63,670 nt of DNA, filler included, from Collodictyon triciliatum (GCA_043381765.1; 4 parts of 4 records of this genome joined end to end with filler, not necessarily neighbours in it); one strand, 5' to 3'; shown: positions 13,548-58,777, numbered from the whole stretch's first letter. Notes: generated by a model from the letters alone, not told the origin. Made by a program: numbers and translations.

Positions 13548-13939
13548 AGACGAACTTGTTGGCTTCTGCAGGAGAGATATCCTCTGATGTGATTAAAAAC
13601 ACCAAAAAAAAAAACAACAAAAAACAAAACATAGCAATAAAGGGGAACATGAAAAGGCAGGTGCGCGGGCGCAGAGCAGGATTTTTTTTTGTGGGTGGAT
13701 TCAAGTCGGCGAAATGATACCTTATCAGAAAAAAAACTTTAAATGAGATTGGCAGGTTTGACGTCGATGTTTTTTCTTTCTCTTCTTTTTTATTTAAGTG
13801 ACTAAACCTTTTTTTTTTGGTTCCTGATATGTGAACTACCAGGACACCACACAACTTTCCCCAGTAACCTTATCCAAGAATCCAAGCCCATCTGCTAAAG
13901 GTTTACCATCCCTTTTGTTGCAGGCCTCAAAGCCCGAGG

Positions 13940-15484
13940 ATGGATACTGCTGACAACGAATATGACTGTGGTCTTGGTATCGGCTCTGTAGGCGATAAGC
14001 AAGCATCTGGACCGAAACAAACCAAAGCAGATGATCAAAATCGACTGCATGAGTTTACCGATATCTCATATCATCCAAGTAACCCAAAGGACAGCAACAA
14101 AAACGAACGAAAGGCTAGCGACGAGGCTCACGTAAAAGCAGAACAAAAGCTGTGGAGTGTTTGTTTCCGACACGCTTTGTTTATTTGGTTCCATATTTTA
14201 TGGAAAACAACCCCCAGATTATTTACTATCATATTTTTAATTTGCATATATTATATGCCATCGAGAATATTGACGAGTCAAATGTTGGACGTCGCATCAC
14301 CAATACTATACGAGGCTGTCAGGGATGTCGTGATGTTGTCAACCTTTTGGTTATCAGTAACGCTGTGCTTGGTGGAAATATTTGGGAATAGATTGAGCCT
14401 ATCGGCTTCGTTAAAATCATTTATGCCTTACTTCATAATTTGCATACCTCTAATTATATGGTTCAAGGATAATCTAGTAGCATTCTGCTTTTGTGTTAAC
14501 GGTGTATGCGGATTAGAAATTACGTTGAAATTATTCCTTATTTCTAGGTCAAAACCATATCGATTTATGGATACTGAACTCACTAATAATTTCCAACTCA
14601 CGAAAGATGGGACTCCATTCGCTCTTTGGAAGGGAATAATGTGTATTTTTATACTCTCAGTTTTTTTATTACAAAATTTATTCCCAATATACCTGTCGTC
14701 GGTCTTCTATATTCAGCTTGTTTTTCGATTCATTCTATTCCCATTCTGTCTATCAATTTCAAAGTGGTATCAGAATTCTTTGATAGTCAATATGTCTGAA
14801 AATGGAACGGCTAGAAGACTGCAGGTAAGCAAAATGGCAAATGACTTCATGTGCCTCATAAGTCGACTATACTTATCAAATTTATCAGGGAGTGGTTCCA
14901 ACTCTACAAGATACATCTTTGTTAATTTTTTGGCTGCTTTTATTGAAATTCTTAGTCATCTTACTATAGAGTATCGCTTAAGCCTAACTTATGAAGGTAA
15001 AAAATTCTTCAATAGTCTCTATCACAGAGTGAGGTTCAAAAATAGAGCGAAAATTATTAACTTCATACCTGGAGAAAGAATTAAGAATGACAGTAAGGTC
15101 GATGCTGAAATATCGCCTTGTGATAGACAAAAATTCATCAAAGAGACCCTAAATTTGCAATCAAAACAAATATGTGACAACATAAGCGCTGAATTGTGCT
15201 CCCTGTTTGTCGCACCAATCATCATGTTCTTTTTGTTCACAATATATCCGAATACATCTTTCCAAACAATCAGCACGGTTTACAGCTGTTTCGATCAAAT
15301 AGCCATTCAACTCGGGTTTGAGTTCTTGTCAGACACCATATCATTAGCCTTTTTGATTCGAAAAGGTAATATCAGCACGAATATATCTTCGGAATGGGTT
15401 CCATTAAGGTATCAGATCATGTTTTGCTGGGATTTATTTTGTGTTACTTACTTTCATATGCTGGTCCGTGTTTTCTCCCGATAA
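13940..15484 (+). CDS. Intronless multi-pass membrane protein of unknown function (514 aa)
   Basis: Long uninterrupted ORF with a hydrophilic N-terminus and roughly 10 hydrophobic segments. An acceptor-like TTGTTGCAG (ends 13923) upstream suggests a 5'-UTR intron. Confidence 0.75.
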   Translation: MDTADNEYDCGLGIGSVGDKQASGPKQTKADDQNRLHEFTDISYHPSNPKDSNKNERKASDEAHVKAEQKLWSVCFRHALFIWFHILWKTTPRLFTIIFLICIYYMPSRILTSQMLDVASPILYEAVRDVVMLSTFWLSVTLCLVEIFGNRLSLSASLKSFMPYFIICIPLIIWFKDNLVAFCFCVNGVCGLEITLKLFLISRSKPYRFMDTELTNNFQLTKDGTPFALWKGIMCIFILSVFLLQNLFPIYLSSVFYIQLVFRFILFPFCLSISKWYQNSLIVNMSENGTARRLQVSKMANDFMCLISRLYLSNLSGSGSNSTRYIFVNFLAAFIEILSHLTIEYRLSLTYEGKKFFNSLYHRVRFKNRAKIINFIPGERIKNDSKVDAEISPCDRQKFIKETLNLQSKQICDNISAELCSLFVAPIIMFFLFTIYPNTSFQTISTVYSCFDQIAIQLGFEFLSDTISLAFLIRKGNISTNISSEWVPLRYQIMFCWDLFCVTYFHMLVRVFSR

Positions 15485-15774: not shown

Positions 15775-15874
15775 NNNNNNNNNNNNNNNNNNNNNNNNNN
15801 NNNNNNNNNNNNNNNNNNTTAATTAATTAANNNNNNNNNNNNNNNNNNNNNNNNNNNNNNNNNNNNNNNNNNNN
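15775..15874. other. Artificial contig linker N44-TTAATTAATTAA-N44
   Basis: Six-frame stop spacer flanked by Ns; an identical construct occurs three times in the window. Confidence 0.97.
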
Positions 15875-16929: not shown

Positions 16930-17477
16930 ATATATATTATGATAATTTAATAAAAACCTCGACCTCGGTAAGCCTCACAACGTTTCTGGACAAGATGTCT
17001 ACAGCTTGCGCGATCTTTTGAAACCGTCGTATTTCCGTTTTGGCTGCATGTCACAACAAGCTTACATTTTGAAGGAATCAGAACGATAGCACAAAACCGG
17101 TTCGATCGTGTCCGGCTCACGGGCCCTCTTTGATGCGAGCTGAGGGCCACTCAAAGCGATATTCTAATAGATCGATAGGCGTAGAAGAGAGTATATGAAT
17201 ATATACCAAATAATAATCGTAAGAAGCATACCTGGGGTTATTGAGACATAAAAGTCCACATTTCTGAACAAAGATAGAAGCGTCTTCTAAACCTGCCAAA
17301 GGTTCCAGCCCGAATGGAAAGATAACAAAACTACATACCGTTCAGAGTGTGTGGTTCTATATAAAAATGATAATTCACTCCATAAGGATGATATTCCTAG
17401 ACCCTTCGATTCATGATTCAGTAGCTTGCTAAACTAAATAAAAGCCTAAACTAAAGGACAGCTGAAAAGCATCGGCG

Positions 17478-19958
17478 ATGGCCATGGGCGATCAAGAGAT
17501 GATAAACCAAAATATTAATGAGGAGGAAGAGCGATCGCCCCAGACACCCGGGTCGTTGAGGATGTTGGATGAATTCCGCGAGTGGACTTCGAAAAGAACA
17601 TATGCTTTTGTCCACGACGATGACGCACGGATTTTTGATACCAAGATGTCTATTGCTGAAAAAGCCTTTGGGACTAGATGGCGTAAGATTCTGACAAACA
17701 TATATCAGCCTCCGTTTTCAAACATGATACTGATTCTATGCGGGTTGAATGTTTTCTTTTGGTTTGCATCACTGTTATTCCCTGAGGAAGATTATTTGTT
17801 GTTTGTAAGTGCGATATGTTGGTTCGGAATTGTGCATTACTTACTTTTCATTCAGCTGTTTCACCTTGATGTTATCCTATTCACGGCCACATGCTTCGAA
17901 AACAATTTCTTGGTGGTCAACCTAATGGTCCAAATGTATTCTATTGGAAGTCTCACACAGTGGGACGCGCGTGCTGGTCACTGTCTTGTGTTTCTTTTCT
18001 TTTCCTACATCAATCTGATATTTATGGATGCCTTTCCGTTCAGTTTCTCCAAGTTCGAACGCGGATTTTCAAATTATGTTCAGCTAAAAAAGGACGAGGA
18101 TGCATCCAACCATCTCGTTTCTTCATCATCATGTTCAACACATACAAACCAGACTGATTGTTCCATCTCAAAAAATCAACATAAGCTGATAAGAGATACA
18201 AAAGTAGTTTGGATGCCAGTGGTCTCTGCTCCTGATTGTGGGGATGCATCTGGGTCGGTCCACCAATCAGTTGACTTGGAATCCATCAGAAGGAGAGTTT
18301 TGTCGATATTCCCAAGAATTGGATTTACAAAGCAATTGCCTAACTGCACCAAAATATATGTTCAGAACATAAAATTCCATTCACACCTGTCGATTTTTCT
18401 GATCATAGTTTGCCAAATAATTCTCTATCATTTTGTGCAAAGAAAGATGATACCAGAAATGAAGGTATCTATTTTACACATCGGCATATTCAGTTGGACT
18501 GATGAAGAAATGTGCCGAATAAGTTGCATTAATATTCTCTATTTTTCATCGAAAAGACTCTATCGATCAGTATTCAAACCGATGGGTATGTCAACCACAG
18601 TGCAGCGTTGCTTTAGAATTCCATTAGTCAAGCAATGGATAGAAATTCTAGAATACGTCCGAGTAATGATTGTACAGCATAAGGATATATCTGAAAATTG
18701 CGCCACCGACCATCGTAGTTTTACCAAAAGTTCCTATGTGAAAAAAGCCGAGTCAATAATTTTTCAGAAGAGCGAAATTAAGAGGAGCAGTTTTCCGTTA
18801 TCCGACCACGGACCGACCGAGTTCTACGAAATCAGTGGGACAGCTGATGGAGCGGATATGGAGAGTCAAAATACTTCTAACAAAGACTGCACAGAGATTT
18901 CACCAGAAAAAGACATGTCTGGAATCGTATTCGATAGAGCTATCGTGCGGAATTTCAACCAAGATAGTCGCCTTCTGGTGTGCATTAGCACTGACCATCG
19001 AGGGAAATATCTCGATTCCAATAAGACTTTTGGGGAGGTCATGTTTGGCAAGCGCGTTTGGACCAACCTCCATAGAATTGTTGTTCGGTTAGGTCATGTT
19101 ACCATTCCATTTTGGTTCATCGGGTTATTTTTCTTTTATTACCTTGTATCGCATCAACATATAGACTTGGAGAAGTATCTGATTATATTTGGTACATTGA
19201 CTGTCATGAGACTATTTTGTGTGATTGTTCTCTTTCCCATCGCCTGTGTTGTTAATTGTGTGTACACCATTGAGTCGTCATTTCTGTTTTTCAATACAAT
19301 CCTTCTCCTGGGATTAGGAATATCAGTTTATGGATGGACGAGCCCGATTTCTTACTTGGGGTTAGTCGCTTACATCCTCTCATGTAGTGTGGGCGTATTC
19401 ATAGATGCTTACCCGGTTTCTTTCAAACCTGCGTCCGTTGTATTGGACGGAGTTTTACACAGGTGGAGAGAAAAGGGTATTCAACTAACAACTGAAGATA
19501 AAGTCATTCTTAATATTGCCAACACATTGATTTATGATGCGTATGGAGAAAACAAGGGCTCGAGAGCACTACGAAATCATGTCAGAGAATTAGCATCGAG
19601 CTGCACAAAAGATAAAAGCTTTTTCAAAAGGCTTTTGGCAAGGAGCTTTGTCGAAAGAAAATTAGTTTCTAATACAATCATAACTGTTTTGTGGATAGGC
19701 GTCACCTGTGTGTATATCTATCTTTGCTTACTGTCTGCAAAAGAGTATGAAAACCAAGATTTAATCGAAGTTTCCACACCGGTTGGAACCTGGTCAAATA
19801 TCGGACTGATGAAAACCATTCTGTTAAACATGGGAATAATCTTTACCAAAAGGGCTGTGTTGATAACGGTGTATCCGCTCAAGACAGCAGCGTTTGACTC
19901 CCCATACCTGAGGATTCCGCTGGTTCCATCTGTTGTGCGACTGCAGCAGAATATTTGA
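17478..19958 (+). CDS. Intronless multi-pass membrane protein (826 aa) with internal duplication
   Basis: Long ORF with two similar halves (DTKMSIAEKAFGTRW / DSNKTFGEVMFGKRVW; IFMDAFPFSF / VFIDAYPVSF; FRIPL / LRIPL). Confidence 0.8.
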   Translation: MAMGDQEMINQNINEEEERSPQTPGSLRMLDEFREWTSKRTYAFVHDDDARIFDTKMSIAEKAFGTRWRKILTNIYQPPFSNMILILCGLNVFFWFASLLFPEEDYLLFVSAICWFGIVHYLLFIQLFHLDVILFTATCFENNFLVVNLMVQMYSIGSLTQWDARAGHCLVFLFFSYINLIFMDAFPFSFSKFERGFSNYVQLKKDEDASNHLVSSSSCSTHTNQTDCSISKNQHKLIRDTKVVWMPVVSAPDCGDASGSVHQSVDLESIRRRVLSIFPRIGFTKQLPNCTKIYVQNIKFHSHLSIFLIIVCQIILYHFVQRKMIPEMKVSILHIGIFSWTDEEMCRISCINILYFSSKRLYRSVFKPMGMSTTVQRCFRIPLVKQWIEILEYVRVMIVQHKDISENCATDHRSFTKSSYVKKAESIIFQKSEIKRSSFPLSDHGPTEFYEISGTADGADMESQNTSNKDCTEISPEKDMSGIVFDRAIVRNFNQDSRLLVCISTDHRGKYLDSNKTFGEVMFGKRVWTNLHRIVVRLGHVTIPFWFIGLFFFYYLVSHQHIDLEKYLIIFGTLTVMRLFCVIVLFPIACVVNCVYTIESSFLFFNTILLLGLGISVYGWTSPISYLGLVAYILSCSVGVFIDAYPVSFKPASVVLDGVLHRWREKGIQLTTEDKVILNIANTLIYDAYGENKGSRALRNHVRELASSCTKDKSFFKRLLARSFVERKLVSNTIITVLWIGVTCVYIYLCLLSAKEYENQDLIEVSTPVGTWSNIGLMKTILLNMGIIFTKRAVLITVYPLKTAAFDSPYLRIPLVPSVVRLQQNI

Positions 19959-20724
19959 GGTACACAAAGGCCACCAGCCCCTCAAAGTCTTGAAGATTCC
20001 ATAGAGCTGCACTCTTCCCTCAAATATGTTAATAGACTGATGCGTGCAGTACCCCCCAACACGCTCCCCACGCTACGTGCACGTGTAATGCATGTGCTTA
20101 TGATGTGCGCCATTACTTGCTTCATGGGTACAAAATACGCCACCTAAAATTGATCTAGTATTATCATCTCTATAGTCACTCAATATAAGCAACCACTTCA
20201 TAGAGACCAAAATAGCGACAAAAAAAAAAGTTCCTTGAGTCGCTCTCAGAAACCGTTCTTTTTGTACAAGAAAATCAAATAAATAAATAAAAATAGCATT
20301 GTTATGTAACACGAACTTGAGTGACCTAATTGCCACCGTTTTTTTTTTTAGATATAAAAAAATCGTCGAAATATAACTACCAACCATATTCAACCAATGA
20401 ATCAATCAATGAATCAATCAATCAATCAATCAATCAACCAACTCATCTCTTTCCACCCTTCAATAACATGATTGCAATGAAGCTCTATATCAGTAAGCCC
20501 CCTCCAAATAAGTCGCCCACCATCAAAACGCGTTTCCCATGTTTCTGGCCTTCGAAATACCACAGCATCATTCCAGCATACGAATCCACCACACAATTAA
20601 AAGCCGGCTGCGCTCACAGAGCTTCAAAAATCGCAGCCTTCTATAACATCCGTGGCCTTTTCTAACATCATATGCACCTTGCCGCAAGTCACAAGCAAAT
20701 AAAAAAAAGGAAAAGGAGAAAATG

Positions 20725-20876
20725 AAAAAAAGAAAAAAGAAAAAAGAAAAAAGAAAAAAGAAAAAAGAAAAAAGAAAAAAGAAAAAAGAAAAAAGAAAAA
20801 AGAAAAAAGAAAAAAGAAAAAAAATCAAAAAAACAAAAAAACAGAAGAAAACAAATCAGAGATGAAAAGAGAAAAA

Positions 20877-20951
<75 letters not shown>

Positions 20952-23760: not shown

Positions 23761-26700
23761 ATGATTAATCCAACCGTTGACGAAGTTCGAAAACTAGTTG
23801 CAGAGCATCCTGACTGCAATCTAGTTCCAATTTACAAGGTAATATCATAGTATTTTCTATAGACCATATGAAATCATGGCGGAGATAACTCCATTCGAAA
23901 TTCAACCACCGCTTTCGAAGTTAGATGAAACTCATATCCATTCACATCTCTTCTTCCCATATTGCTTTCAGGAACTTGCCGCCGACCTTGAGACACCTGT
24001 TTCAGCATTTTTGAAGGTAAACAATCCGTGTATAAGGATAAATTCCAGCTTCGCTTCAAGCGAAGACTTGAGATTACATTCCAGCCCATTTCACTTCTTT
24101 TTCTTCCCTCATTTACTTTTTTCGTTTTTTCTTGTTCTCTTTTTTACACCTCCAAATGGGAACTATTTTTTTGATAGGCCAGGACAGGAACCCATTCTTT
24201 CTTATTTGAGAGCGTGGAAAAAGGAGAAAAACTTGGACGTTATTCTTTCATCGGAACATCTCCCATAAAGGTATCTGAGTTACGCTGGTGCTGCTGACAG
24301 ATTTTCAATGAAAGACAAGTTAATCATCCAGACATTCTTACACTGCGCTACATCCAGACTTATGAACACATTCACTATTAGATTATCAAGTCTGGTCCAG
24401 GAACGACATTTGAAGGAGATCCTCTGGTCCCGGTAGAAGAAGGTTTGTACGTCGTATAATATAAGGCATATAACGGATAAAAGAACGGACATACCTTGAT
24501 GCATAATGCACCCATTTTGAAAGCAGAGTTAACATGAAGGCATAAGAATATGGTGAAAATACGACTTCTTTCCGTCATGAATAAACAATCGCTTTATACT
24601 TATTTTTATCACCTTCAATAATGAATAGAATTGAAGGCTTACAAACCCGTCCCCATCCCCAACTTGCCGCCATTTCTCGGAGGTGCCATCGGATATGTGA
24701 CCTATGACTCCATGTACCACTTCGAACCATCCGTCAAGGTGCTCATATCGGAATGTCAACTGAAAATGAACTGTTGTATTGCTTTCTCACAGATGTGTCC
24801 TAATTCTAATAATCTTACCAAAAACGCAGCTGGTAAACTTGTTGTAACAGACTTATAATACCTTTACATTATAACTAGCCACCCGCCAAGGATTCCATGA
24901 AGGTTCCCGAGTCTATCTTTTTGATTTGCGACTCTTTGCTTGCATTCGACCATGTTCGCCATACAATCTTGGTCAGTTTCTTTTGTTTTCTTTCAAGGCA
25001 TTATTCACGATAGAAATTTAATTTAAACTCGGCAGAAAACATCTTCCCCACCAAAGCCAGTCATTTTCTTCCAGTTTCCTAGAATTATCTTTTTGTTCCT
25101 AGCTTTTGTCAATGAGGAACATGTATATTTAAAATTATACATATCTAAGGTCGTTGCACAATGCCGAGTGACGGAAGATATTGAAACTGCATACGCCGAA
25201 GCTGTTGAGAAAATAACCACACTTGTCGACAGGTTAGATGATCCTTATAACCACATATATTTCTATGGGAAGATAATGAACTCAACCCACAACAATTTCT
25301 CCAAAAGAGTGTACATCATACGTAAATACTCCTGCAACCGAAAACCATCAAATACACCCAACTAGACTGGAATCTCCAATCACGCCGATGCCCGCAGACT
25401 CTATAGGCCCCGAAGTTGGCCAGGGTGAACCTGTATCCAACATTGGGGAAGAAGGGTACAAAGAAATTGTTTCAAAATTCAAGGAGCACATCTACGCTGG
25501 TAACATCATCCAGGCTGTTCCGTCGCACAGACTGTCATATCCCACGACGCTGCATCCTTTTAACATATACAGGTTTCCATAGCCTCTGAATTCATTCGCA
25601 CTTCTTCTGTGATTCTAGAGAATTCGTCTCTTGCGCTATTCATCGCCTTCGCTTGAAACATATTCAATGTGCATTGATATGTTGACAAATATCGTCGTTT
25701 TTTTTTAATGCGGACTACTAGGCAACTTCGTATCGTGAATCCCTCCCCCTACATGTTCTTTATGGACCTCGACGGTTTCCAGATCATTGGTGCTTCGCCC
25801 GAACTATTGGTAATATGGTGCATTCCTGCCCTTAATCCGTCGGTAGATACATCATCCAGTAGATAAAAAAGAGGAGGTAGTCCTTAGCCATGATTTATCA
25901 CAGGTCAAGGTAGATAAAGGCGTCATTACGACTCACCCCATAGCTGGTACAAGAAAAAGAGGGAAAACACCAGAGGAAGACCTGGTTGATGACCAATTTA
26001 TTCTTTTTGTCTTTGTCTTTCTCTTTCTCTTTCTCTTTCTCTTTCTCTTTCTCTTTCTCTTTCTCTTTCTCTTTCTCTTTCTCTTTCTCTTTCTCTTTCT
26101 CTTTCTCTTTCTCTTTCTCTTCTTTTTCTTTTAACATTTACCTAGTTTTTTTTTTTTTTAACATTTAGCCTACTGGCTTTTTTTAAAAAAAATTTACATT
26201 GGAAATGCAGGCCTTGGAAAAGGACCTTCTCAGCGACGAAAAAGAGCTTGCAGAGCACATCATGCTCGTCGATCTTGGGCGCAACGATGTTGGCAGAATC
26301 TCGAAACCTGGGACTGTGAGTATTTTGATAAGTGCCGAATATACATCTTCCGTGAATTTTTTTTTAATTTGTTCTTCGTCTTAATGAATCTCAATTCTAT
26401 GGTCAAGGAAAAATATTACTTGCATTCTTATCATTCACTCATATTAAGGTGCGTGTTGACTCGATGATGCACATCGAAAAGTATTCTCATGTCATGCACA
26501 TTGTTTCAAACGTCTCTGGTCAGGTACAAAAAAGAAAAAGGGGAGAGGAGCTTATCTGTATCATAAATTTAATTGCCATCAACAAGAATCCAGTCTAGTC
26601 GATCTTATGCTTTGTTTTTTCTTTTGCTTTTATACGAGCGAGCCTTAAACACATTCTCCATTCAGCTGCGCGAGGACAGGTCGGTATACGACGCATTCCG

Positions 26701-27745
26701 CGCAATATTCCCTGCAGGAACGGTATGAAGCTGTAAAAAAAAAAAAAAAGAAGTAAAAGACGACGACATATTGCTGCGCGAATCATTTCATAGTCTTTCT
26801 GTCTATATGATTGGCTTCAACATATGTATAGGACTTTATTCAAATAACCCTACTATTGCGATCAATAGGTATCGGGAGCTCCAAAGATTCGCGCCATGCA
26901 GCTTATTGCTGAGCATGAAAAAGAGCGGCGAGGTATATATGCAGGTAGTGCTATAAACCATGATGGTTGGTTGAATTTTCTCACTTTTATTCGCCCAAGG
27001 CGGACGAGATGGGCTCTTTTAAGTCGTTTTCTAAATGGATACCGTCCCTCCTGGTTATACCCCAGGTTCTGTGGGCTACATCGGGTTCAACGGAACAATG
27101 GACACATGTATCGCTATTCGCACAATGGTATACAAAGACCACACAATATACTTCCAAGTAAGCATATCATCATCGAATTATAATGAAAATTTCGATATTC
27201 CCAACGATTTCATCCTCTTTCGCCATTCTTTCATTCGTTTTCTTTCACTCTTTTCTAATCCCATCCGTCCTTACTATTGATCTCTATCAAAAATTAAAAT
27301 ATGTCCACCATTTTAGGCCGGCGCCGGAATCGTATTCGACTCAGTTCCTGAAAGCGAATATCTGGAAACGATGACAAAGATGCGCGCTTCTCTCAGGTTG
27401 GTGCAGTGATGACAGATATCCATTTTATGTATCACAGCAAACGACAATCATATTCGTTGAGTTCACTGTCACACTATTCCCTCGCATGAATTTCTCAACA
27501 ACAACAACAAAACAAAAACACTCTAGAGCTGTTCAACAGGCTGAATCTATCTACTTCCGCAAAGCCGGAGCTAGCTCAACAAAGAAAATCCCCTCTGTTG
27601 TATGTCATAGCTACTAATATAATATTTCAACCTATGAAGCAATACTGCCGATGGCTGTGTCTTAATCCCCATGTTCCTTACCTCTTTTTTTTTTTTTTTT
27701 AAGGACACCGACCCACGTGGGTTCTGGAACAAATCGCAGAACTAA
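23761..27745 (+). CDS. trpE: Anthranilate synthase component I (alpha), about 18 exons
   Basis: Spliced motifs [133 protein letters not shown]. The last exon is uncertain: TAA 27743-27745, or a fusion to trpG (see findings). Confidence 0.95.
26017..26121. repeat. (TTTCTC)n microsatellite in trpE intron
   Basis: Direct tandem repeat; edges approximate. Confidence 0.9.
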
Positions 27746-27934
27746 GTGACTTGAAAGGAATTAACTGTCATCGAGTAATAATTAGATTGCCTCGCTCTTA
27801 GATATACAATTATGAAACCTATACACAAAGATTCATATGTTCAAATCCTATTCAGACAATATTCTCATATATCTTGATATTATCATTTCACTCGCCTTTC
27901 AATAACTGAACTCTTTCAAAAAAAAAAAAAAAGG

Positions 27935-29427
27935 ATGTCGCGCTTGTTGTTAATTGACAATTACGACAGCTTCACATATAACATCTACCAGTACCTGTGT
28001 GAATTGGGCGCTGATGTTCAAGTATGCCTGACAACCCCCGTCGCTTTACACATTTTCATTTCCCTTCAAAATGATCAACAACATAAAAATTACCCAAAAA
28101 TATTCTTTCATACCACACTTTTGACAGTTCTCTATCCCTGCTTTTCGAAGAAGGCAAATATTGATCCAGCCACTGACATAATTTCATCCACCTTGCTCCC
28201 GCTGAGATATATTTTGCATTTGTTTTCCCAGTATTTACTTTACGTATATAGGTCCACCGAAATGACAAAATCACTCTTGAAGAATGTATTGCCATCAACC
28301 CCGACCACATAGTGATTTCACCCGGCCCTGGCCACCCTCGAGATGCGCACGTGTCTATTGTATGGCTAATTTCACAGAACACGCCTCCGTACCGTGTCAC
28401 ATGAGAAGGGCTTAAGATGTTTCTTATTCTATTATGTACCTCATTAATGGATGTTAATACTAGGATGTTATCAAACATTTTGCTGGGAAAGTTCCACTTT
28501 TAGGTAAAAAGAAAACTCACTCTCTTTCCATCACTGGACAAACATCATCCTGCGATGAATAATAATAATACCGATTTAACAAATTAATTTAATTGAAAAT
28601 CTTCGATTCATTTTTAACCACATTTGCTGGATAAAAGAAATAAAGGTTATTATATTATGAATGAGATGATATAACCCAAGGCTGTATCCTTAATCAAATA
28701 GGTGTATGTCTCGGTCATCAAGCCATCTTCGAAGTTTATGGCGGAACAGTTGCGAGCGCCGGAGAAATCATGCATGGCAAGCAGTCTCTCGTATATCACG
28801 ATGGAAAAGGTATACAACACCGACCCATGAACTTTAGCTTCTGATACATGTCCTGTACACCTTCCAGAACGAAAACGTCTAATTTTACATCTTTCGATTT
28901 GAAATGTCTTGTGCAATAGGTGTATATTCAGAAATTCCGAGCCCTTTCGCAGCCATCCGCTACCACTCGCTTGCAGGCGTCCGTGAGACAATATCATCTG
29001 AATTGCAAGTCACATCCCAGACAGCCAATGGGATTATTATGGGCGTACGGCACAAGAAATACACAGGTGATTATCAAATCACACATATTTCCTTGATTGC
29101 AAATTTTTTAAATCGAGTATCCACCCTATTGCTCTGTCCGAACTTGCTGACACCAAATATCTCTCATATCATAGTCGAGGGTGTTCAGTATCATCCCGAA
29201 TCAATCAAATCAGATCACGGAAAAAAGGTACGTTACCTACAGGTCTCTTGCTTATCTTGTGGTTCTGGGTTAATCACATTCAGAGTTTGAAATCACACCC
29301 ATTTTAACTTGTGTTCCTCTATTCTCCTTTCTTTTTTCAATTTGTTAATTGCTAATTATTTTTTTTAAAATAAAACCAGCTATTCCAGAATTTTCTCAAC
29401 ACCAAGGGTGGTGAATGGAATCAATAA
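27935..29427 (+). CDS. trpG: Anthranilate synthase component II (glutamine amidotransferase), 7 exons
   Basis: [39 protein letters not shown] (catalytic Cys), [17 protein letters not shown] (His/Glu); ends [15 protein letters not shown] (TAA 29425-29427). Confidence 0.95.
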
Positions 29428-31994
29428 AGCAGTACACTAGAAAGCTTGCAGAGGGTAACTCTCTCACTTACGAGGAGGCTTACAACGCCATCTACGGTGA
29501 GAGAATTTCACTTGACAAGATTTGCTTTCTTGCATTCCTTAAGTCCGGTTAAGGTTACTAAATGACTATTGATATACCCTATCGAAACACGTTTACTCAT
29601 ACGTCTATTTATACAATCATAATCACCCCGCGATTGACATGTGGGTAGAAATCATGTCTGGAAAGGTATGCAGTTTAACAATACCTTCTTTTTTTTTTTG
29701 TTCATTACATCAAATCAGAAATAAATATCTTATAATGACCGATCATATATCCGGTTGAACCTTTTTTTTTTGATGGCCGTTTATCGAAACAGAGCTCTCC
29801 CGTTCTGATTGCCTCCTTTTTGACCGCGCTGCACATGCATGGAGAAAATGCCGAGGTGATTGCTGCCAGCGCTGCGGCTATGCGAGACCATGCCAGTTTG
29901 GTAAATGGTATCATTTTTGTCATCCCAGAGTCATCACAGTATTTCCAATTTCTTTTTTCTTTTCGTTCTTTTATACTATTATGTGGATAATTTTTTGCTG
30001 TTCCCTACTATTATCCTCACACCCAACAAATGATGCCAAGACATTACTCATCCATCACCGCAGGTGGCGAATGCATTGATATTGTGGGCACCGGAGGGGA
30101 CTGCATAGATACTTTCAACGCCTCTACGGCCGCTGCTTTTGTAATTGCTGGTGCTGGGGGTATGAGTCATATACAAGTACACGCAAAGTATCATATTGAC
30201 GAGTAGAAAGGTCGACACATAACACTACTACTATACCAGCAGTCGAAGGTGCTGATTACCTCTTTTATTGATAGGACGAATGGCAAAGCATGGGAATCGG
30301 GCTGCGTCGTCATTGTGTGGAAGTGCAGATCTGTTAGAAGCAGGTTTGATACACCACAACTTGCAAAATATACTACTCTTTTCATAATTTTGTTTTAGTT
30401 TATCCGATTCCAGTAAAACTAGAATGTTAATATCGGGTTTATCACAATCCAGCCGGTGCTAATCTGGAGTTGGCACCCAATCAAGCTGAATTCGTCCTGC
30501 AAAACTGTGGATTTGTGTTTTTGTTTGCACCGCGATTTCATCCCTCCATGAAAACTGTTGCAGGTTTTTTTTTATTTTCCCTAGAAATACCATTTAGGGC
30601 ATAAAGCTACGTTAATAGTATCTCCTGACACACACACACACTCACTATATCTTTTAATTTGTTGTATTTTTACCCTGTGTGCTCTCTAAATATTCAAAAT
30701 ATTGGGATTTTCTGTCTTGGAAACGCCTCTTCCTTCAGCCATAAGAAAGGAGCTCGGCATTCGCACCGTCTTTAACTTCCTCGGCCCCCTGGTAACTGTC
30801 TCTATCATCTCTTTGAACAATGCCACTTCCAACTCCTCCACATAATTATTCCTTTCTCAACCTCTACGTTCGTTTGTGCAAATGACTACTTCATATCGAT
30901 TGTTTGTGATGAAAATTTTGACTTTTTATTGTTTTCGCTCAATAATGAATTCTTTAGACAAATCCGTCGAATCCAAAGTACATACTTGCGGGTGTTAGCA
31001 AGAAGGAAGTGTGCCCGATGTTTGCTGAGAGCTTCAAGAGAGCTGTACGGTTCCAATACCCCATTGTTTTTGAATCAGCTTCATTTGCACAGCCTGACAA
31101 CTTTACTTCACAGATTTTCATTTTTATTCAATTAATCAACTGCACAATTTGGTTCTCGCAGGGAATGAAACGCGCTATGATTGTCCACGCAGAAAACGGT
31201 ATGGATGAAATTAGCCCATGCGGCGTGACACATGCTTGGCTACTGGATAACGGGGAGGTGTGTCATAAATATAGCTAAAATAAGTAAATAAATAAATAAA
31301 AAAAAATTGTGTGGTAGAGTACTCTTACTTTTACCTATTTTGATTGAGACATATCCTCACCCCGTAATATTTCCGACTTAGATTACAAACTTTGAAATCC
31401 GTCCTTCTGACTTTGGGCTTGACGAGCACACCTTGCGTATGCACACATCAAACCCTTACTATGCGGCAATTAATAATTAGGGTTCTGAAGACTCAAGCTT
31501 TATACGCATTATAGAATCTGTTCAAGGTGGAAGGCCACACCACAATGTCGGATTGCTTCACAAGTTTTTAGACGGAGAACAAGGGCCCATCACGGATTTT
31601 GTCGTAAATTTTTTCTGATCCATTACTTCAAGCCTAACCAATATTCCGACTATTACTTATTTATTTACATAGTTTTTTTCAACCAAGGCATGTATGTACA
31701 ACTACATTTTCCCCCTTTCCTTTCAATCAAACTAAAATCAGTAATCGAACATCAAGCTCATCAACGCCGCAGCCGCTTGCTTCGTTGCTGGTATGTTCAT
31801 ATAAACATATATTTTGAAATCAAAGGCAGAATGCCGCTTATCTAAGCAGCTTCTTTTAATTTCCTTTGTAGCTGCAGGATTTTCCGACTTGATCTTTATT
31901 TTGTCTCTAAAGTTGTATTGTTATTATTGTTTTTTTTTTAAAAAAAAAAAAAACACCACCCCAACTGATACACATAGGCCTTGCAACCGACCTT
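29415..31994 (+). CDS. trpD: Anthranilate phosphoribosyltransferase, at least 13 exons, 3' truncated at contig end
   Basis: [33 protein letters not shown]/..DIVGTGGD..TFNAST../AKHGNRAASSLCGSADLLEA/..FLFAPRFHPSMK/IRKELGIRTVFNFLGPL/TNP../NGMDEIS../LINAAAACFVAG/LATDL. Confidence 0.95.
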
Positions 31995-32094
31995 NNNNNN
32001 NNNNNNNNNNNNNNNNNNNNNNNNNNNNNNNNNNNNNNTTAATTAATTAANNNNNNNNNNNNNNNNNNNNNNNNNNNNNNNNNNNNNNNNNNNN
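31995..32094. other. Artificial contig linker
   Basis: N44-TTAATTAATTAA-N44. Confidence 0.97.
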
Positions 32095-32803
32095 CTTTCT
32101 TTTTCTTTCTTTTTCTTTCTTTTTCTTTCTTTTTCTTTCTTTTTCTTTCTTTTCTTTCTTTTCTTTCTTTTCTTTCTTTTCTTTCTTTTCTTTCTTTTCT
32201 TTCTTTTTCTTCAATAAATTATTTTCTTTTTTTCTTCTAAGTGGCATTTTAAAACCTTGGTAATATCTGCTCGGTATTTATTTATCTCATTGCACTCCTC
32301 CATGGAATAATTACACTACACCCACCTGCTCATTTCCATATAGATTGACATAGGTGCTAAACTTACAAAAATTATAGAAACGAATAGCTGAATCTATTTG
32401 GCAAATAATGTACAGTATCTGTGTTCGCTTTGCTCTGGGAGCAATATGAAGCGCGCTGTATGTACTGTTGGCGACACATCCTGACCGATGCGCACCGTTA
32501 GCTGGTGGGTATTCTAATATAGCATATATTATCAATCAAAAAATTGTTGAAATAGATGAAACGTAGAAAATTCCGACAAATATCGAGCTTGTTCAAGCTG
32601 AAGTGCGGGAAAGTATGGCTTCACCACAAGCAATCAAATAAAGTCGATTGAAATTGATCTATATTATCTATCCAAACTATGGCATACCCGTTGACATTCA
32701 CTCACGAACCATTGTGTCAAAATTACCGCACCGATTGCTTCATGAACTGAAAGAGCTGAACAACTCATTTTTGTTTGGTAGCTTCTCTTCGTCGCAAGGA
32801 CAT

Positions 32804-33745
32804 ATGCACCCACCTGACCATGAAAAAGAATGGAACGCTCAACTCCAAAAATTGCAAGAGACAGTCCCGCCTCTTGGAGATGGAGAATCACCATCAAACA
32901 TTCTTCCCAGTCCTCAGATTCGGTTGAGTTCGTCAAATAGTCGTGAATCTATATCATTCCCCTGGGGAGTATCTGTTCATCCTAAAAATGGGGCAGTCTA
33001 TGTGACAGATGAAGACTTGAAGAAGGTGATGATATTTGACCGATTCCTCAATTTTGTTTCTTCTCATTCCACTGATTTGACGGTGCCTAATCCTCGCCAT
33101 GGGCCTCGGGGTATTGCAATATCGACAAGTGGCTTGATTGCTTTGGTTGATTGCGAAGCACACAGCGTAAATCTGTACACGGATACATTTGTGCTCAGCC
33201 GTCGCATTGGAGGTCAAAAAGGAAGCAAACCCTATCAATTCAATCGACCTTATTCCGTCACCTTTGATGCCGAAGAAAATCTTTACGTTGCTGACTCCGG
33301 GAATAGGCGAGTCCAAAAGTTCGACAGAAAAGGGCAGTTTATTCAGACGATTGGTGCAGATAGCGAAGAAGGAGGGCTCATCAAAAGCCTTGTGAATGGC
33401 GTCATAGTGACAGGCGATTCGAAGGTTCTTGTCTTGTGTGCAGGTTCTGACATGGTGCGAGTCTTTAATACGAAGGGAGTCTTTGAGAAGTACATAAAAA
33501 TTGGTCTGCGTGCGAGTATTGGAGGCTGGTCGAGTATCTTCAACGCATCAAAAGGGCTGTTTGGAATCTGTGAGAACACTGCTGGGCTCATTTCTTTTTA
33601 CAACTATGAAGGTGCTTTGGTTTATGAGATGCACGTTGAAGGTTGTTTGGGTGCTTGTTTTGGTCAAGGAAAGAACTTTTACGCCACAAGTTTATCAGAT
33701 AAGTCCATCCGAATGTACCCAATATCTGCGGAATTGACATATTAA
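32804..33745 (+). CDS. NHL-repeat beta-propeller protein (start uncertain; may have upstream exons)
   Basis: Repeats FPWGVSVHPKNGAVYVTD, GPRGIAISTSGLIALVD, FNRPYSVTFDAEENLYVADSGNRRVQKFD. The ORF is open from 32648 and the first ATG is at 32804. Confidence 0.85.
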   Translation: MHPPDHEKEWNAQLQKLQETVPPLGDGESPSNILPSPQIRLSSSNSRESISFPWGVSVHPKNGAVYVTDEDLKKVMIFDRFLNFVSSHSTDLTVPNPRHGPRGIAISTSGLIALVDCEAHSVNLYTDTFVLSRRIGGQKGSKPYQFNRPYSVTFDAEENLYVADSGNRRVQKFDRKGQFIQTIGADSEEGGLIKSLVNGVIVTGDSKVLVLCAGSDMVRVFNTKGVFEKYIKIGLRASIGGWSSIFNASKGLFGICENTAGLISFYNYEGALVYEMHVEGCLGACFGQGKNFYATSLSDKSIRMYPISAELTY

Positions 33746-36968: not shown

Positions 36969-39900
36969 TTATTTATACGCTGGATGTTTTGACAGGGCGA
37001 CATCGGCAATGGCTCTGAGCAAATCCCTATCGTGGGCGGATGAGTGGTCCCTATGCTGGAGTTCTATGCATCCAACGGGAATCAGCTCCGTAAGCCGGTG
37101 TCTGGTTGAAGATGAGCAGGAAAGAAACATAAGCAGCTCATAGGTAACCCAATCTACGTAGCGCTCAAAGAAAGCATCTGCCAATGTGGTGTATTTGTTC
37201 ACGTATTGAGAAATGCCATTGAGTTTGAAGCCAAGCCTTTGGGTCGTGTCTATGGTTTCTGACCAAAAGGTGATGGAGCTTTCCATGATGCCTCTGGCTT
37301 CTAACCCTTCACAGATTCTAAGCGATAACGACCGGAAGATATGCTCGGCCGCATACCCAGTGTCCAGGGTGAGCATTTTCAGTATTTCCGTCTGCTCCCT
37401 CCATTCTGAAAATATCTTACTGCCCTTTTCGACGGCCCGGAGGACGATAGCCTTCATGTCCTCAACACCCGGTAGATACTTTGCGTAAAAATCTGGCTTC
37501 AGCAAAACAAGAGCGTTCAAGTTGTTTTGACGGCTACCCTCGAATATGTTATCCAGATAGACATGTCTCCAAAGATGATGAAAAAATGGCTTAGCGCAGT
37601 ACTCCTGAGGGTAGCAACCCCCTTGATGGACTTGTTCTGCTTCATTTGTAACATCTATGGTGTTCATGTCTCTTGTTAAATGATGGATAATAATAGCGTG
37701 CTTTGGTGACTGATGACGGCGGTTCTCATATTGCATCTGGGCATATAAAAAAGCAAAGTAGTTCAATCGATTCACATCGCAGCAACCATTCGTAAAAGAT
37801 GCAACCAAATATGACTCACTCTCTACACTGAAAAAGCGAGCTAGAGAATCCGTCAGCTGTCTTTCGGTCGATATTTGGTTCAGATTTAGATAGAATACGT
37901 CTTCTAGATCCATTTCACACCGTAAAGTTGCTTCAACATCCCCAACTCTACTGAAATCAGCGTAAGTCCATACAGATATATGGAGGCCGATGGGGAAACT
38001 GGAGATTCTGGAATCACTCCAACCATTTTTCTTTGCATATTTGATTACATCGAAAAGATTGGTATGACATTGTTCATCCATATACTCCTTGCGAATATTT
38101 AGCCCACATATTTCCTATTAAATAATTGGGAGGATTTAACATTAAAAAAATCTAACCAGGCCAAGCTTTGTAATTGTAAATAATCAAAAATATGTTTTAC
38201 ATTTCTTTTATGGATATGAAATTTTTATGGATATGCTTTTAGTCACATTGCTGTATTCAGTTGTCATTATCCACTCAGGTTTTAACATCCATATTAGATA
38301 ACGAAAGGTTTCTTTAACGAGGTCGCTAACAATTTTTGAACCAGATGTATGACTGGCTCTTAATAATGCCGAAGCTATGAGAGATTCATGGTAAGCAGCA
38401 AATGCATCACAGTACGTTTTTTGCTGTCTTGGTTTTTCCCAAGACTTTTCTAATGCCTCACCTAGTATTTCCTGTGATTTTTATTATAATATTATTGAAT
38501 TCAGTAAATTATTTACTTTTTATCTGAAATTCCCAATATGAAAGCATATTATCAAAGATTTTTGAAATAAACCTTTATATTTTGTACAGTCGTTTTGTAG
38601 AGTCTATCGTCCAAAATATCATCGATTGTCAAATGTTGCTTTTCAAAACGACTTAGCAGTGTACTATGAATTCCCCAAGGTGTTAAACCATAGGCCTCCT
38701 CTGTTGAAACGATCATCATACATTTAAAATTAGGATGAACCGAGTATATGTCATCACCATAAATTGGAGAAGATATATGACAAAACGTCTTATCTCCAGT
38801 TTGTACGTATTTCTAAATATTAATATATGATATTAGTAATGAAATATCAGAAATCATTTGTTTAGATTTTTTTATAATTTAATTTAAAGCTTTGATGGTC
38901 TTTGATAATAAAAAAAATTGCATTTCTTCAAACCTGGCTGAACATTTCGGAGAGAAGTTCATAGATACGATTATATCCCACCATGACCATAAAAAGACCA
39001 TGTTCCATGCAATAGCGAACCTTATTTAGCAACTTACAAATATTATCTTCTAGATAATCTAGGTAATCAGTGCTGAATATTATGATCACTTCATGATAGT
39101 TGATCATTTCTACATCTAGCAGATATGAAAAGGCGAAGTTGTTTTCCGTGATAATCATCAAGTGACGCGATTTGGAATCAGATAAATTTAATGATATTAA
39201 TTCAAGAGCAGAATTTCGAGGGATTAGAGGGACCCCTAATCTAGAGCGAAAAAGTTTGATTTTTTCCCCTAAAGCCTCCTTTGTGAAACCATTCATGTTT
39301 CTGGAAAGAGCTTGCATTAAAGTTATTGAAAAGTCTATTCTTTGCCGAGTACTTATCCATTCTATGAAACCGTAAAAATCATGCATTCCTATGGGTCAAA
39401 TCAGAATTTACTTAACCTCAAAAATTTGTAAATTTTCATCCAAAAATAAAAAATTGTAATACATAAATGGGTCTCCATAGAAATCGTCACGAATATTTAC
39501 CGTAAAATTTTTCTTTTCTTCTATCCAACCGTGTCAGCAGCGTTTGTTTATACCCAAAATTGCTTGCAGGTGGTTGATGTCCTTGGAAAATGTCATGCAA
39601 TATATTGGTAATCGTTCTAATTACCTTATACCTAATTTTTGGGTCTTTTGGCATCAAATAATGGATATTTCTACTATCAACTTGCTTAAAATTATCCAGT
39701 TTCATATAAAGAGGCTCTATAATATTCATGGCTGTCATTTCCATGTCATTTATAGATGGGTGCTCGTGATTCAACATAAGCTATTGGAATAATGTGAAAG
39801 TTGAGAAATTTGCAAAAAAAAAAAAATGTCTAATTAAAAAAACATTTACATTAAAACGATCAAAACCGTTTACAATCATAAAATACCATTCGATTAGTGT

Positions 39901-42900
39901 TTGAGGCATTAAGTCTACTATGAGAGAGAATTATGACAGAAATTTTTGATTTCTCGAGAAGTCGGTCAAGTATTTCAAAGGGTGCGTGAGGGCTTTGTCT
40001 GGCCAAGCTGGCATCTTCCATCAAAAGAACGTACTGTAGATAGTTTTTTCCATGGTCGTCATTTCCTTTTCGAATTCTATCTTTTTCATTTTGAATTTTG
40101 ATTTGACTGTTCAATTCTTTTTCCTCACGTAAAGCACCATTATACGCCTTTTCTATATCTGAATTTTAAAGATGAAACCGTTAAAATTATCAACAACCCA
40201 AATATTTGATAGCTTCATAAAAATGGGAAAATGGCCATATAATGTATGATATAAAAATTAAAAAAAAACCCCCAGGTCTTGTAAAAACAGAACACTGAAT
40301 ACACTTAAAGATGAGTTTGGGGAAGAAAGAGAAAAGTTTTCCTCTATTTTCCGACGAAAATGTTCTCTTCAAAATACCCATGGCCAATGATTTTGATGTT
40401 CCTGAGCCCCCAACAACCTAAAGTAATTTGCTGTTTATAAAATATATACCCCATGAATTTTTGATATAAAATGTGCTCAATAATTTACCAAGGCCGGCAT
40501 TCTGTTGAATATAGAAACTGTCATCAAGAAGATATTCTCAGACAAGGTCTCGTTTAATAACGTAGTTTTATCTCCCATATCCATGCATTTCAAAAATAAA
40601 CTCATTTCTAGTTTCATTGTATTTTGAAATCGTTTGTATTTCATAAAAAATACTTTCTTTATCCCATCAAAGGATTTTATCCCAAAAAGCTTGTTGGAAA
40701 TATTTACTTCGTCATATAAAACGTAATTTAAATATCTTTCTCTTTGATTTTCCCCTCTGAAAGTGCTTGATTTTGATTCCAGATTGCTATATATTGTATT
40801 ATATAGTCAACGATTAATGATAGAAAAAACATTAAAATATCTTTGTAGTTTATAAATTTTTATCTAAATACTCCTCATGAGATTGCTCAATAATATAAAT
40901 TTACCTAAGTTTTAAGTAATAGCAACAGAATAATGCAATTCCCATCGATATTTCTCGAGAAGATAGCTCTTCATCTGGAAAGAAAGGACAGTTGGAATCG
41001 TCTTCTACTACTTTTGTCAGATTGCACACTTGGCATTCCTTTTTTAAATTAAATTTTTCATTCAGGGATTCTTGTCGATAAAATTCGAGTCTTTGAAAAG
41101 ATATTCTGTAAAACCATCTCTCCAAATCAATACATCTTTTTATATCCCGTAAACTAACACACGATGGTTCACCAAGCTCCCTCCTCATAAAGTGTTGAGA
41201 TCTGGCTATGAGTTCGCAAAAAAGGTTACTCTTTTTAACATCCATTTGGCTTTTGACGCTTAAAAATCCTGTTTCAATATAAATGGAGATATCCTATTGT
41301 CGTATTATATATTTTAACATCACCTTCTTAGATATCTATTGTGTTTTTGTAATAAAAACCCGTCATTTTTCTAATTTATACGATAAATTTTTATTCAATA
41401 ATTACCTCTTTATTAACATCATTAATCATCGAGTTAATATAGAAAACTTCTTCGTTCGATTCGATGTAACCAAAGTTCCATAGGTGCAAGCCAATTGATG
41501 GAGGTATTTCACGTATTGGATGTGAAAATAAACAAGATTTTCTATTAATATGACTTTCTTGAGAATTGACGTCACTTGGAACGATAAATGATGTGCCGGT
41601 AATCGATTCTTCAAGTTCATATTTACTGGAGCGATACACTCCAATAAATGAAAGATTTTTCGGAAGTATTGATCCATCGCATGTATGATCACAAAAACAC
41701 TCTGAATGTCAATTTTTTTAGAAATGGAATTAGTAATAAACTAGGATATTTTTTTTTCAAAATAATCTTACCTTTTAAGAAATCGATGTGTTTAGAAGTC
41801 CTTATTTCGTCAAAAAATATGACGGCAGGCATTTCAGGACTTTTATCCGCGAGTTCTGTGCAAAAGTCAAAGTTATTTTTAAAATTATGAATTAGTAGAT
41901 TTTTCAGTACAAAGTACCTTTTCCCTCATTGATTGTGTTTCTAATTTCAGATTCCTTTGTTTCATCTATAATAATTAATTATTAAACACACTGTTTTAAG
42001 TATGAATTTATTTCGAAATACTATTAAAATTTTGAATAATTGGAGTCGAATGAAGGGAATAAAATTATTAAAAAAAAACCATGAACGAGGAGCTTAACAT
42101 AATTTCCGTTCAGTATTTGGCATACGAAATCTATCAATTTTGTTTTTCCACAACCAGTCTCTCCCTTTTAATAAAATAAAAATTAACTATATTAACAAAA
42201 AAACATTTTGATATAGTTTAAATTGTAAATATTTACCGTGATAATAAGTGGTAGTCGATTTTTGATGCGATTATAAATGTGTATTATTTTGATTATGCAA
42301 TCTTTTGTAATTGTTAGACCGACTATTTGGGCTCCTCTTTCAATAATATCCTTTCTCTCACCGATAATTATACTTAATATTTCAAAAAGTGTATCAGAAA
42401 TATTTTTTTGTCTATGCTCCATACCCCAAATATCAGGGAAACGGTTATTAATTCTCTTTGATAGGTAGAGGATGTCATCATAGTGACGTGGAATTTTTCC
42501 ATCAGGACTGCAACTTGGGTGCTTTTGATCAGTCATCTTTTTGAACAGAGGTTCGATTTCACAATATACAGTAAACGGCGCTTTTTCGGGGGTAAATAAC
42601 AAAGGTGGGTGCAAAAAATCATTCCAAAAGCGATTCACTTCCAAACTCTCTACATCTAACCTCGCTGAAGAAAATGCGTTTGCATAATCCATAAGTATTC
42701 GAATAATAAACCGCCTTTTAAGGCAGGTATGTGGTATGGCTTTCAGTCCTGATGGAGATAAAACTGGGCTCTCTTCGAAAATGCGAAACTGGTTGAAGCA
42801 AAATTTCACAAAACTGATCCAAGCGTATCTTTCTGCCTGGCAGTAGTAAGAAAGAGTTTCTTCACATCTAAAGAAAATAATTTGGATTATTGTCAATATT

Positions 42901-48900: not shown

Positions 48901-49409
48901 CCAAAATCTCGAAGTGAGAAGTAACTCAAATCGATATTGAGTACGTTTTGAATTATTTGAAAAAGATGAAAGCGCTCATCGACAGAAGATTCATCTAAGC
49001 CGGTCCCTCTTATCATTTGATTCTCGTTGCGATGCGATATATCGCGCACCATTGAATCCTCCCAGGGTGTATCTGGGTGATACTCTGGGAATTTATTGGC
49101 ATGCTGTAGAGATAATACCAAGGGTTTCAAACTCCACAGTAAATCCAGAGGGTGCCTCTTTTTCTTCAATCCATGTAGAATTAGAGAGTGTGGATTTCCA
49201 AACCCAACTACATCTAGCCTGTGCTTACCGCGTTTGAATTTCGGGCATAATGTCTTTTGCTGTAAAACGTTTCCTGCTGCAATTTTTCCCCTTCTAATAT
49301 CTGTAGGAAGCGAGTGTGTCAGATACGGCTCGTTTTTTGTAGGATGATCAACTTCATTTTCTGCATCAAATGTCTCGATATTGAAGCTGTCCTTCCTTTG
49401 GGGATTCAT
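36969..49409 (-). CDS. RNF213/mysterin-like giant AAA+ ATPase, multi-exon, no RING/RZ E3 module visible
   Basis: Ordered motifs LPRCEEVLICSSKTSRQEIDIF, VTSCKPSMGKSYWI, LPLIIT/GETGCGKTKL, FFDEIRT, IPPSIGLHLWNFG, VSLRDIKRCI, VGGSGTSKSLA, LMEDASLARQSPHAPFEIL, MHDFYG, SRHLMII, VHPNFK, TVLLSRFEKQ, WRHVYLDNI are collinear with the RNF213 AAA core as recalled. Confidence 0.8.
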
Positions 49410-58684: not shown

Positions 58685-58777
58685 CCTTTGTCTGTTTGTA
58701 GGCTGTTTGTGAGCGTGTATGCGTCTACTCTGCCCACGGGCCAAGGTCTTTTATGCAAAACAGGGGTGGGCGGCCGG

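Follow-up and report, generated by a model that had tools for sequence, protein, structure and literature searches.

A stretch of 63,670 nucleotides from Collodictyon triciliatum (GCA_043381765.1; the window, meaning this whole stretch at its full length) carries three genes of tryptophan biosynthesis, trpE, trpG and trpD, head to tail on the plus strand and in the order of a bacterial operon. We interpret this cluster as the nuclear relic of a Chloroflexota-type trp operon in a diphyllatean protist, in which trpE and trpG are spliced together on one RNA, transcription would continue into trpD, and the downstream cistrons would be translated by reinitiation. As a complete account this is the reading that we favour, by a slight degree of confidence; its core, that the cluster is an intronised operon relic, is well supported. 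Three genes of one pathway lying in operon order on one strand in a eukaryote are not explained by chance. The initial annotation of this DNA had proposed descent from a bacterial-type trp operon followed by heavy intronisation, and this was upheld by a single bacterial source order, a trpG/trpD junction of the kind found in that order, and 36 introns.

The window consists of four contigs joined by artificial linkers, and the cluster lies on the contig spanning 15875-31994, the end of which cuts trpD (Table 1). Gene models were built with tblastn using homologues as guides (fungal TrpE for trpE), and frames and splice sites were checked; the trpE model forms one open frame after splicing. Pfam searches with single exons returned, in order, Chorismate_bind for trpE, GATase for trpG, and Glycos_trans_3N and Glycos_transf_3 for trpD. 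Coding sequence is interrupted by 17, 6 and 12 introns in the three genes, and one more lies in the trpE-trpG (E-G) spacer, all 36 being GT..AG, which corresponds to 11.5 introns per kb of coding sequence. Introns measure 78-230 nt (median 141) with a GC content of 0.34, and exons have a median length of 81.5 nt and a GC content of 0.48. In the genome, 189 nt separate trpE from trpG (27746-27934). The trpD frame is offset by -1 relative to trpG, and a TGA in the trpD frame stands directly upstream of the trpD ATG. These models agree throughout with the layout given initially (E-G-D order, more than 30 GT-AG introns, 189 and -13 nt between neighbours, contig end in trpD). The accompanying remark that no targeting leaders are visible also held, as alignments with homologues detected no N-terminal extension in any of the three proteins: residue 4 of TrpE pairs with Gonapodya TrpE residue 7, residue 5 of TrpG with bacterial TrpG residue 4, and residue 1 of TrpD with the first residue of a Diphylleia protein described below. 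A (CTCTTT)n-type microsatellite of about 100 nt occupies 26016-26121 in trpE intron 10, and similar CT-rich repeats occur at 20568-20950 and 32096-32210.

Splicing was assessed on assembled contigs (not reads) of four sequencing runs, X1-X4, aligned to positions 26200-31994, a range that starts downstream of trpE introns 1-10. Sequencing runs contain only small shares of the sequence (at most 0.11), and X1-X4 are those that were compared. X2 is a freshwater metatranscriptome; X3, for which the label RNA was a guess, behaves as RNA in that its contigs are spliced; X1 and the metagenome run X4 behave as DNA. All 15 GT..AG joints found in the contigs coincided with model introns, confirming 15 of the 26 introns modelled in this range. 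Beyond these joints, neighbouring pieces of a single contig pointed to two introns, and a loose end to one more. RNA-confirmed introns comprise trpE introns 14-17, five of the six in trpG and, by joints, seven in trpD. At the last trpD intron, a loose end at 31791 splices to the final 17 nt of the genomic contig and reads on in frame beyond it.

The joint between trpE and trpG was detected in both RNA runs. One X3 contig connects 27774 to 27934; the first position ends the exon with the trpE stop codon, and the second opens an exon whose first base directly precedes the trpG ATG. In X2, a contig of 261 nt (contig 5) comprises the end of trpE exon 15, exons 16 and 17, exon 18 with its TAA, and then the first letters of trpG. 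These were the sole X2 and X3 contigs at the 5′ end of trpG, and neither RNA run provided a contig over the spacer intron (27775-27933). In the spliced form the trpG ATG follows the trpE stop by 30 nt in the same frame, and a second in-frame stop (TGA, 27752-27754) lies between them. Since both in-frame stops persist after splicing, the mature RNA carries two open reading frames (ORFs), not an E-G fusion. Contigs from two studies support the presence of trpE and trpG on one mature spliced RNA. The same two contigs bear on a spliced-leader operon of the nematode or kinetoplastid type: within this thin coverage, both carry the trpE exon and not a leader at the 5′ end of trpG.

Several other contigs of these runs deserve mention. 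At 28464-28634, an X3 contig passes unspliced from exon 3 of trpG into intron 3, reflecting intron retention or pre-mRNA. X1 contigs within 29773-30693 were unspliced and differed from the window at four bases and by two 2-nt deletions, mainly within introns; they probably stem from the DNA of a strain or species that differs slightly. In the freshwater runs X2 and X4 there were contigs identical to the window. Another X3 contig departs from trpD exon 7 at 30745, six bases past the acceptor, and has 28 foreign letters upstream, which could stem from chimeric assembly, an unrecognised upstream exon or trans-splicing. Tried as a spliced leader, this 28-nt end had no match within the window.

At the other gene boundary, trpG and trpD overlap. 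The first base of the trpD ATG directly precedes the Trp codon in the ...GGEW ending of trpG, and trpG continues for two codons to its TAA. Starting in trpG exon 4, X3 contig 11 continues through exon 7 as far as 29455, and over the overlap it shows neither gap nor change. This identity to the genome demonstrates that the -1 offset is real; a micro-intron and a frameshift error in the assembly were both rejected on this gapless contig, and the shortest intron of the cluster (78 nt) far exceeds the overlap. The initial annotation had suggested one spliced polycistronic or recoded unit; a shared RNA is supported for trpE and trpG, by the X2 and X3 contigs, and for trpG and trpD the RNA cover stops 28 nt past the trpG stop.

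The overlapping junction has a bacterial counterpart. In the trp operon of a metagenome-assembled genome (MAG) of Dehalococcoidia (locus L001), trpD also begins with an ATG one base before the last trpG Trp codon. The two junctions are positionally the same, and they overlap by 13 nt in the window and 7 nt in L001 since the protist trpG is two codons longer. A survey of the bacterial order of L001 provided 25 loci out of 41 searched genomes, and the L001-type junction was present in 13 of them, 12 with ATG and one with GTG. Among 80 bacterial loci sampled by TrpG similarity, trpD follows trpG in 54, and just one of these, L001 itself, has this junction. The shared junction would be hard to explain if trpG and trpD had not arrived together on a single stretch of DNA and remained contiguous since. 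In six of the 25 loci (L093, L095-L098 and L100), trpG ends with ...GGEW plus two codons, as in the window, and trpD starts 43 nt downstream.

Protein similarity points to the same bacteria. Over its full length, TrpG shares 68-70% identity with the stand-alone TrpG proteins of Tepidiformaceae/Dehalococcoidia MAGs, and scanning bacterial genomes with an alignment of those proteins yielded the 80 loci. L001 was the best of the 80 for all three proteins (TrpE 61%, TrpG 68% and TrpD 50% identity); the best fungal TrpE, that of Gonapodya, reached 54% identity to the window protein versus the 61% of L001. Gene order in the L001 operon is trpS-trpE-(two inserted genes)-trpG-trpD-trpC-trpF-trpB. A metagenome scan with trpE exon 8 returned seven loci, none above 54% identity, which included neither a close relative nor a eukaryotic E-G-D neighbour. 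Metagenome loci L085-L087 are ordinary bacterial E-G-D operons.

Phylogenies of TrpE, TrpG and TrpD against bacteria, fungi and other protists, which the initial annotation had proposed, all placed the window proteins beside this one Chloroflexota order. The careful TrpE tree (36 rows) recovered (L001,(window, fungi)), with ultrafast bootstrap/Shimodaira-Hasegawa-like approximate likelihood ratio (SH-aLRT) supports of 97/92 and 99/97, the former for window TrpE as sister to fungal TrpE, and a quick tree of 68 rows had the same shape. In the TrpG tree (69 rows), the window grouped with fungal TrpG domains, Chromosphaera and 13 L001-like bacteria, with a support of only 91. The TrpD tree (62 rows) contained a clade of support 100 made up of 25 bacteria of the L001 order, themselves monophyletic (99), and 23 eukaryotic or unnamed rows, with other Chloroflexota as the next outgroups. 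The eukaryotic part of this clade held the window with Diphylleia (100), a chytrid TRP4 and probable fungal TRP4s (names were checked for the chytrid only), Chromosphaera, Corallochytrium, a rotifer and multidomain models.

Judged by these comparisons, the nearest bacterial relatives of TrpE, TrpG and TrpD all belong to one Chloroflexota (Dehalococcoidia) order, and the protist trp genes form one lineage with those of fungi and several holozoans, sister to that order. A transfer from bacterium to eukaryote is the direction that fits, because the eukaryotic sequences are nested among Chloroflexota and the locus has operon features. The simplest reading of the trees would be a single ancient transfer, with separate transfers as the alternative. 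The possible horizontal transfer mentioned in the initial annotation looks old and not private to this protist: the gene lineage is shared with fungi, ichthyosporeans and Corallochytrium. On independent acquisition, an approximately unbiased (AU) test did not reject a clade of window TrpE with L001 (p = 0.119).

A relative of the protist provided evidence on what follows trpD. With the Chromosphaera G-D model (P0185) as query, a search of 1.84 billion representative proteins returned a 612-aa ORF from a Diphylleia rotans transcriptome (P0238; species as labelled in EukProt). It is 80.8% identical to the window TrpD across all 307 residues, begins at the same Met, and runs on into an IGPS (TrpC) domain. 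By this identity the host is a diphyllatean close to Diphylleia. The TrpC half of the ORF has its best match in L001, at 61.6% identity; the other bacteria sampled do not exceed 46%, and fungal TrpC reaches 55%. Because trpC is fused to trpD in this 81%-identical protein, the window trpD very probably continues as a trpC fusion beyond the contig end, and the earlier suggestion that trpC lies past the contig edge is probably right through this TrpD-IGPS orthologue. We found no trpC elsewhere in the window. A 49-aa stretch of trpD used as query in a homologue search gave no matches.

On the favoured reading, both the gene order of the operon and an overlapping trpG/trpD junction of the donor type have survived the insertion of at least 36 spliceosomal introns. 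One pre-mRNA would start at a promoter upstream of trpE and run on through trpD(-C), and removal of the spacer intron brings the trpE stop within 30 nt of the trpG start. TrpG would then be translated after termination at that stop, by termination-reinitiation, and ribosomes stopping at the trpG TAA would restart at the trpD ATG 10 nt upstream. Such termination-reinitiation would be the eukaryotic counterpart of bacterial translational coupling. Leaky scanning is an implausible route to the downstream cistrons because the upstream ORFs contain 24 ATGs (trpE) and 13 ATGs (trpG). In yeast, 80S-mediated reinitiation on bicistronic RNAs has been demonstrated, according to the accessible part of one report (PMC11952965). 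More tentatively, and in our estimate with less than even likelihood by a clear distance, the locus could be a true nuclear operon in direct descent from a bacterial one, in which a single promoter would give an intron-rich pre-mRNA of three or four cistrons, and coupling at a junction kept since the Chloroflexota transfer would yield TrpG and TrpD(-C); the locus would then represent the ancestral trp state of fungi and other Amorphea/CRuMs. If so, the trp pathway of those lineages would have entered eukaryotes as one operon, and all 35 coding introns would be later gains, dating intron gain in genes of intron-free ancestry.

Several points weigh against our interpretation. A contig spanning two genes is no proof of one transcript, a known limit of contig data, and the trpE exon shared by the joined contigs, at 71 nt, exceeds the assembly word, which leaves room for a merger of two overlapping transcripts. 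RNA contigs leave 29456-30076 uncovered and with it the continuation of the E-G RNA into trpD; over 29498-29691 there is no contig of any of the four runs. An AATAAA (29423-29428) lies across the trpG stop, and X3 contig 11 breaks off 27 nt further on, at 29455, which makes a poly(A) site inside the trpD ORF possible. As a poly(A) signal this motif was not significant alone, with 183 matches in the window. In Diphylleia, TrpE and TrpG were not among the matches, under length limits of 110-2000 and 192-2000 aa that may have hidden partial ORFs, and no polycistronic transcript is known from this relative. Bacterial sampling for TrpE, TrpG and TrpC was selected via TrpG similarity, and the timing and direction of transfer rest on trees in which the eukaryotic branching order is not settled.

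Some of these points would equally be expected if the operon relic is real and each gene has its own promoter and mRNA, the joined contigs being merged overlapping transcripts or minor read-through with intergenic splicing. We consider this rather unlikely, while giving it more weight than any other rival. The trpG mRNA would then start in or before the last trpE exon and have an intron in its 5′ untranslated region, and the trpD mRNA would start inside trpG. Transcript starts and ends are invisible in contigs, an A-rich tract (27919-27932) lies just before the trpG ATG, and the end of the RNA contig downstream of the AATAAA would suit a separate trpG mRNA. There are precedents as well: yeasts with an acquired ent operon express mostly monocistronic mRNAs, and intergenic-splicing read-through RNAs have been described in Arabidopsis (bioRxiv 10.1101/399394 and PMC9768141, respectively, as far as the available portions of these texts go). 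Against separate mRNAs, the only contigs at the trpG start in both RNA runs were spliced to the trpE stop-codon exon and none covered the spacer intron, and the X2 contig extends back over three further spliced trpE exons. Furthermore, the trpD ATG lies just 35 nt into the last trpG exon, leaving little promoter room outside trpG.

A different possibility, which we regard as improbable, is that a minor splice form, stop-codon read-through or a frameshift produces TrpE-TrpG and/or TrpG-TrpD fusions, the separate ORFs being one isoform. The trpG ATG is indeed in frame with trpE in the mature RNA, and use of a GT at 27721 as an alternative donor would preserve phase and skip both stops, GTT-type donors accounting for 7 of the 36 here; likewise, if the donor of trpG exon 6 were joined to the AG at 29428-29429, the result would match the phase of trpD. 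Rare variants drop out of contigs, which leaves room for a minor isoform, and fused or merged models exist elsewhere (the Chromosphaera G-D model, a chytrid model with E-G-IGPS in one frame, P0254, and P0213, P0219 and P0248). The RNA contigs of two studies, however, use the donor at 27774 and retain both stops, and one retains trpG exon 7 with the overlap intact. No slippery heptamer is present within the 13-nt overlap, a micro-intron across it is implausible next to a shortest intron of 78 nt, a G-D splice form would remove the last 15 residues of TrpG, and the Diphylleia ORF begins at the trpD Met. The initial annotation had set an operon against a multifunctional gene with a single continuous fusion ORF in complementary DNA; what we found was TAA and TGA in frame between trpE and trpG and a -1 offset between trpG and trpD. 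Finally, an artefact (bacterial contamination, chimeric assembly, or a frameshift error creating the trpG/trpD overlap) has next to no probability in our view. The assembly is fragmented and the proteins are 50-70% identical to bacterial ones, but the genes hold 36 spliceosomal introns, 15 of them confirmed by GT..AG joints in RNA contigs, and metagenome DNA contigs of X4 match exon and intron stretches without differences. The RNA contig over the overlap is gapless, GC at third codon positions (0.46-0.51) falls within the 0.30-0.55 of other ORFs of the window, and an 81%-identical orthologue exists in a eukaryotic transcriptome.

Returning to the operon-relic reading, the closest known system is the Chloroflexota trp operon itself. 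L001 shares the E...G-D-C order, provides the nearest relatives of TrpE, TrpG and TrpD (and of TrpC, via Diphylleia), and has the same trpD start position on the last Trp codon. The window differs from it in its 36 spliceosomal introns, its eukaryotic base composition, an overlap of 13 rather than 7 nt, a 189-nt E-G distance with a spacer intron, and a trpD that is probably fused to trpC. As a working unit, a bacterial operon comprises uninterrupted genes read by bacterial machinery, and the protist genes are instead intron-bearing and housed in a eukaryote.

Termination-reinitiation on overlapping or closely spaced ORFs is familiar from viral stop/start overlaps. The trp locus resembles such systems in its short or negative stop-AUG distances (30 nt for trpG, -13 nt for trpD); no upstream ribosome-tethering motif was identified there. 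Multifunctional Trp proteins offer another comparison, as in the TrpG-TrpD fusion of E. coli and the fungal TrpG-TrpC(-TrpF). They too hold the same enzymes in one expression unit, unlike the window, where the mature RNA has separate ORFs. Other eukaryotic or unnamed models of this lineage (P0254, P0213, P0219, P0248, P0279, P0185 and P0188) join trp domains in many orders, including a chytrid E(C-terminal part)-G-IGPS in one frame, E-G-C-F-D, D-E-G, D-C-F, a rotifer D-F, and the Chromosphaera and unnamed G-D, which suggests that neighbouring trp genes may have fused or merged repeatedly in this gene lineage. In most eukaryotes trp genes are unlinked, and fusions between component I and component II of anthranilate synthase are reported from stramenopiles and dinoflagellates in the consulted part of PMC3942023.

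Among nuclear loci, the ent (enterobactin) operon of Wickerhamiella/Starmerella yeasts arose by horizontal transfer that was recent and lineage-restricted, and gives mostly monocistronic and some potentially bicistronic RNAs (bioRxiv 10.1101/399394, accessible text). Both loci are bacterial biosynthetic operons kept clustered in a eukaryotic nucleus. Unlike the yeast ent genes, for which the word "intron" does not occur in that text, the trp locus is heavily intronised, belongs to a lineage shared with fungi and holozoans, and has an overlapping stop/start and a splice joining cistrons. Green algae possess nuclear polycistronic genes in which a downstream ORF is translated by leaky scanning past the upstream ORF (PMC7896298, PMC11291117; available portions). 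The trp locus resembles them in having two or more ORFs on one spliced nuclear mRNA, here trpE and trpG. It differs from what these portions describe in that its upstream ORFs are long and rich in ATGs, which does not fit leaky scanning, and in that the ORFs are pathway partners of operon ancestry. In the open-access literature, supplements excluded, we found no paper on a eukaryotic trpE-G-D cluster or on diphyllatean polycistronic genes.

Operon-derived clusters in eukaryotic nuclei are very rare, and the documented yeast ent case is, by the accessible account, recent. The trp locus combines bacterial order, a donor-type overlap, extreme intron density and splicing that unites two cistrons. 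It therefore offers a system for asking how a eukaryote translates downstream cistrons without leaky scanning, and how and when introns were gained in genes of intron-free ancestry, the bacterial relatives having none. It also bears on whether the trp pathway of fungi and their relatives came as one operon from a Chloroflexota-like donor.

Table 1. Coordinates of the trp cluster and of the artificial joins between contigs, counted from the first letter of the window.
Feature	Position	Strand	Remarks
trpE (anthranilate synthase component I)	23761-27745	+	18 coding exons, 17 introns, 512 aa; TAA 27743-27745
trpE last exon	27704-27774	+	71 nt; stop codon and 29 nt beyond; GT donor at end; RNA contigs
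E-G spacer intron, GT..AG	27775-27933	+	159 nt; joint in X3, loose end in X2
trpG (glutamine amidotransferase, anthranilate synthase component II)	27935-29427	+	7 exons, 6 introns, 196 aa; TAA 29425-29427
trpG/trpD overlap	29415-29427	+	13 nt; sequence; X3 contig 11 across 29378-29455
trpD (anthranilate phosphoribosyltransferase), 5′ part	29415-31994	+	at least 13 exons, 12 introns, 307 aa so far
Artificial linkers (N runs around ttaattaattaa)	15775-15874, 31995-32094, 50879-50978	.	contig ends, not biology

Apart from the linkers, N runs at 49513-49615 and 52484-52908 are ordinary scaffold gaps, and contigs that adjoin in the window may lie apart in the genome. Scanning the window against Rfam and for tRNAs gave 0 matches in each case. 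Pfam searches on nine other large ORFs of the window matched one of the nine, a plus-strand open frame of 790 aa (53781-56153) with Roc, Ras and COR-A domains, as in ROCO-type GTPases. Two long intron-free ORFs on the plus strand, at 17466-19958 (830 aa) and 13868-15484 (538 aa), have a membrane-rich look and no Pfam match. On the minus strand, 36969-49409 holds very large AT-rich ORFs, which may be exons of one giant gene; the four that were searched (381, 391, 504 and 634 aa) had no Pfam match. A 365-aa ORF with NHL repeats lies at 32648-33745 on the plus strand. Lastly, positions 58001-60136 form an island of 65% GC in a window of about 38% GC, with long overlapping ORFs on both strands and dipeptide- or microsatellite-like repeats.

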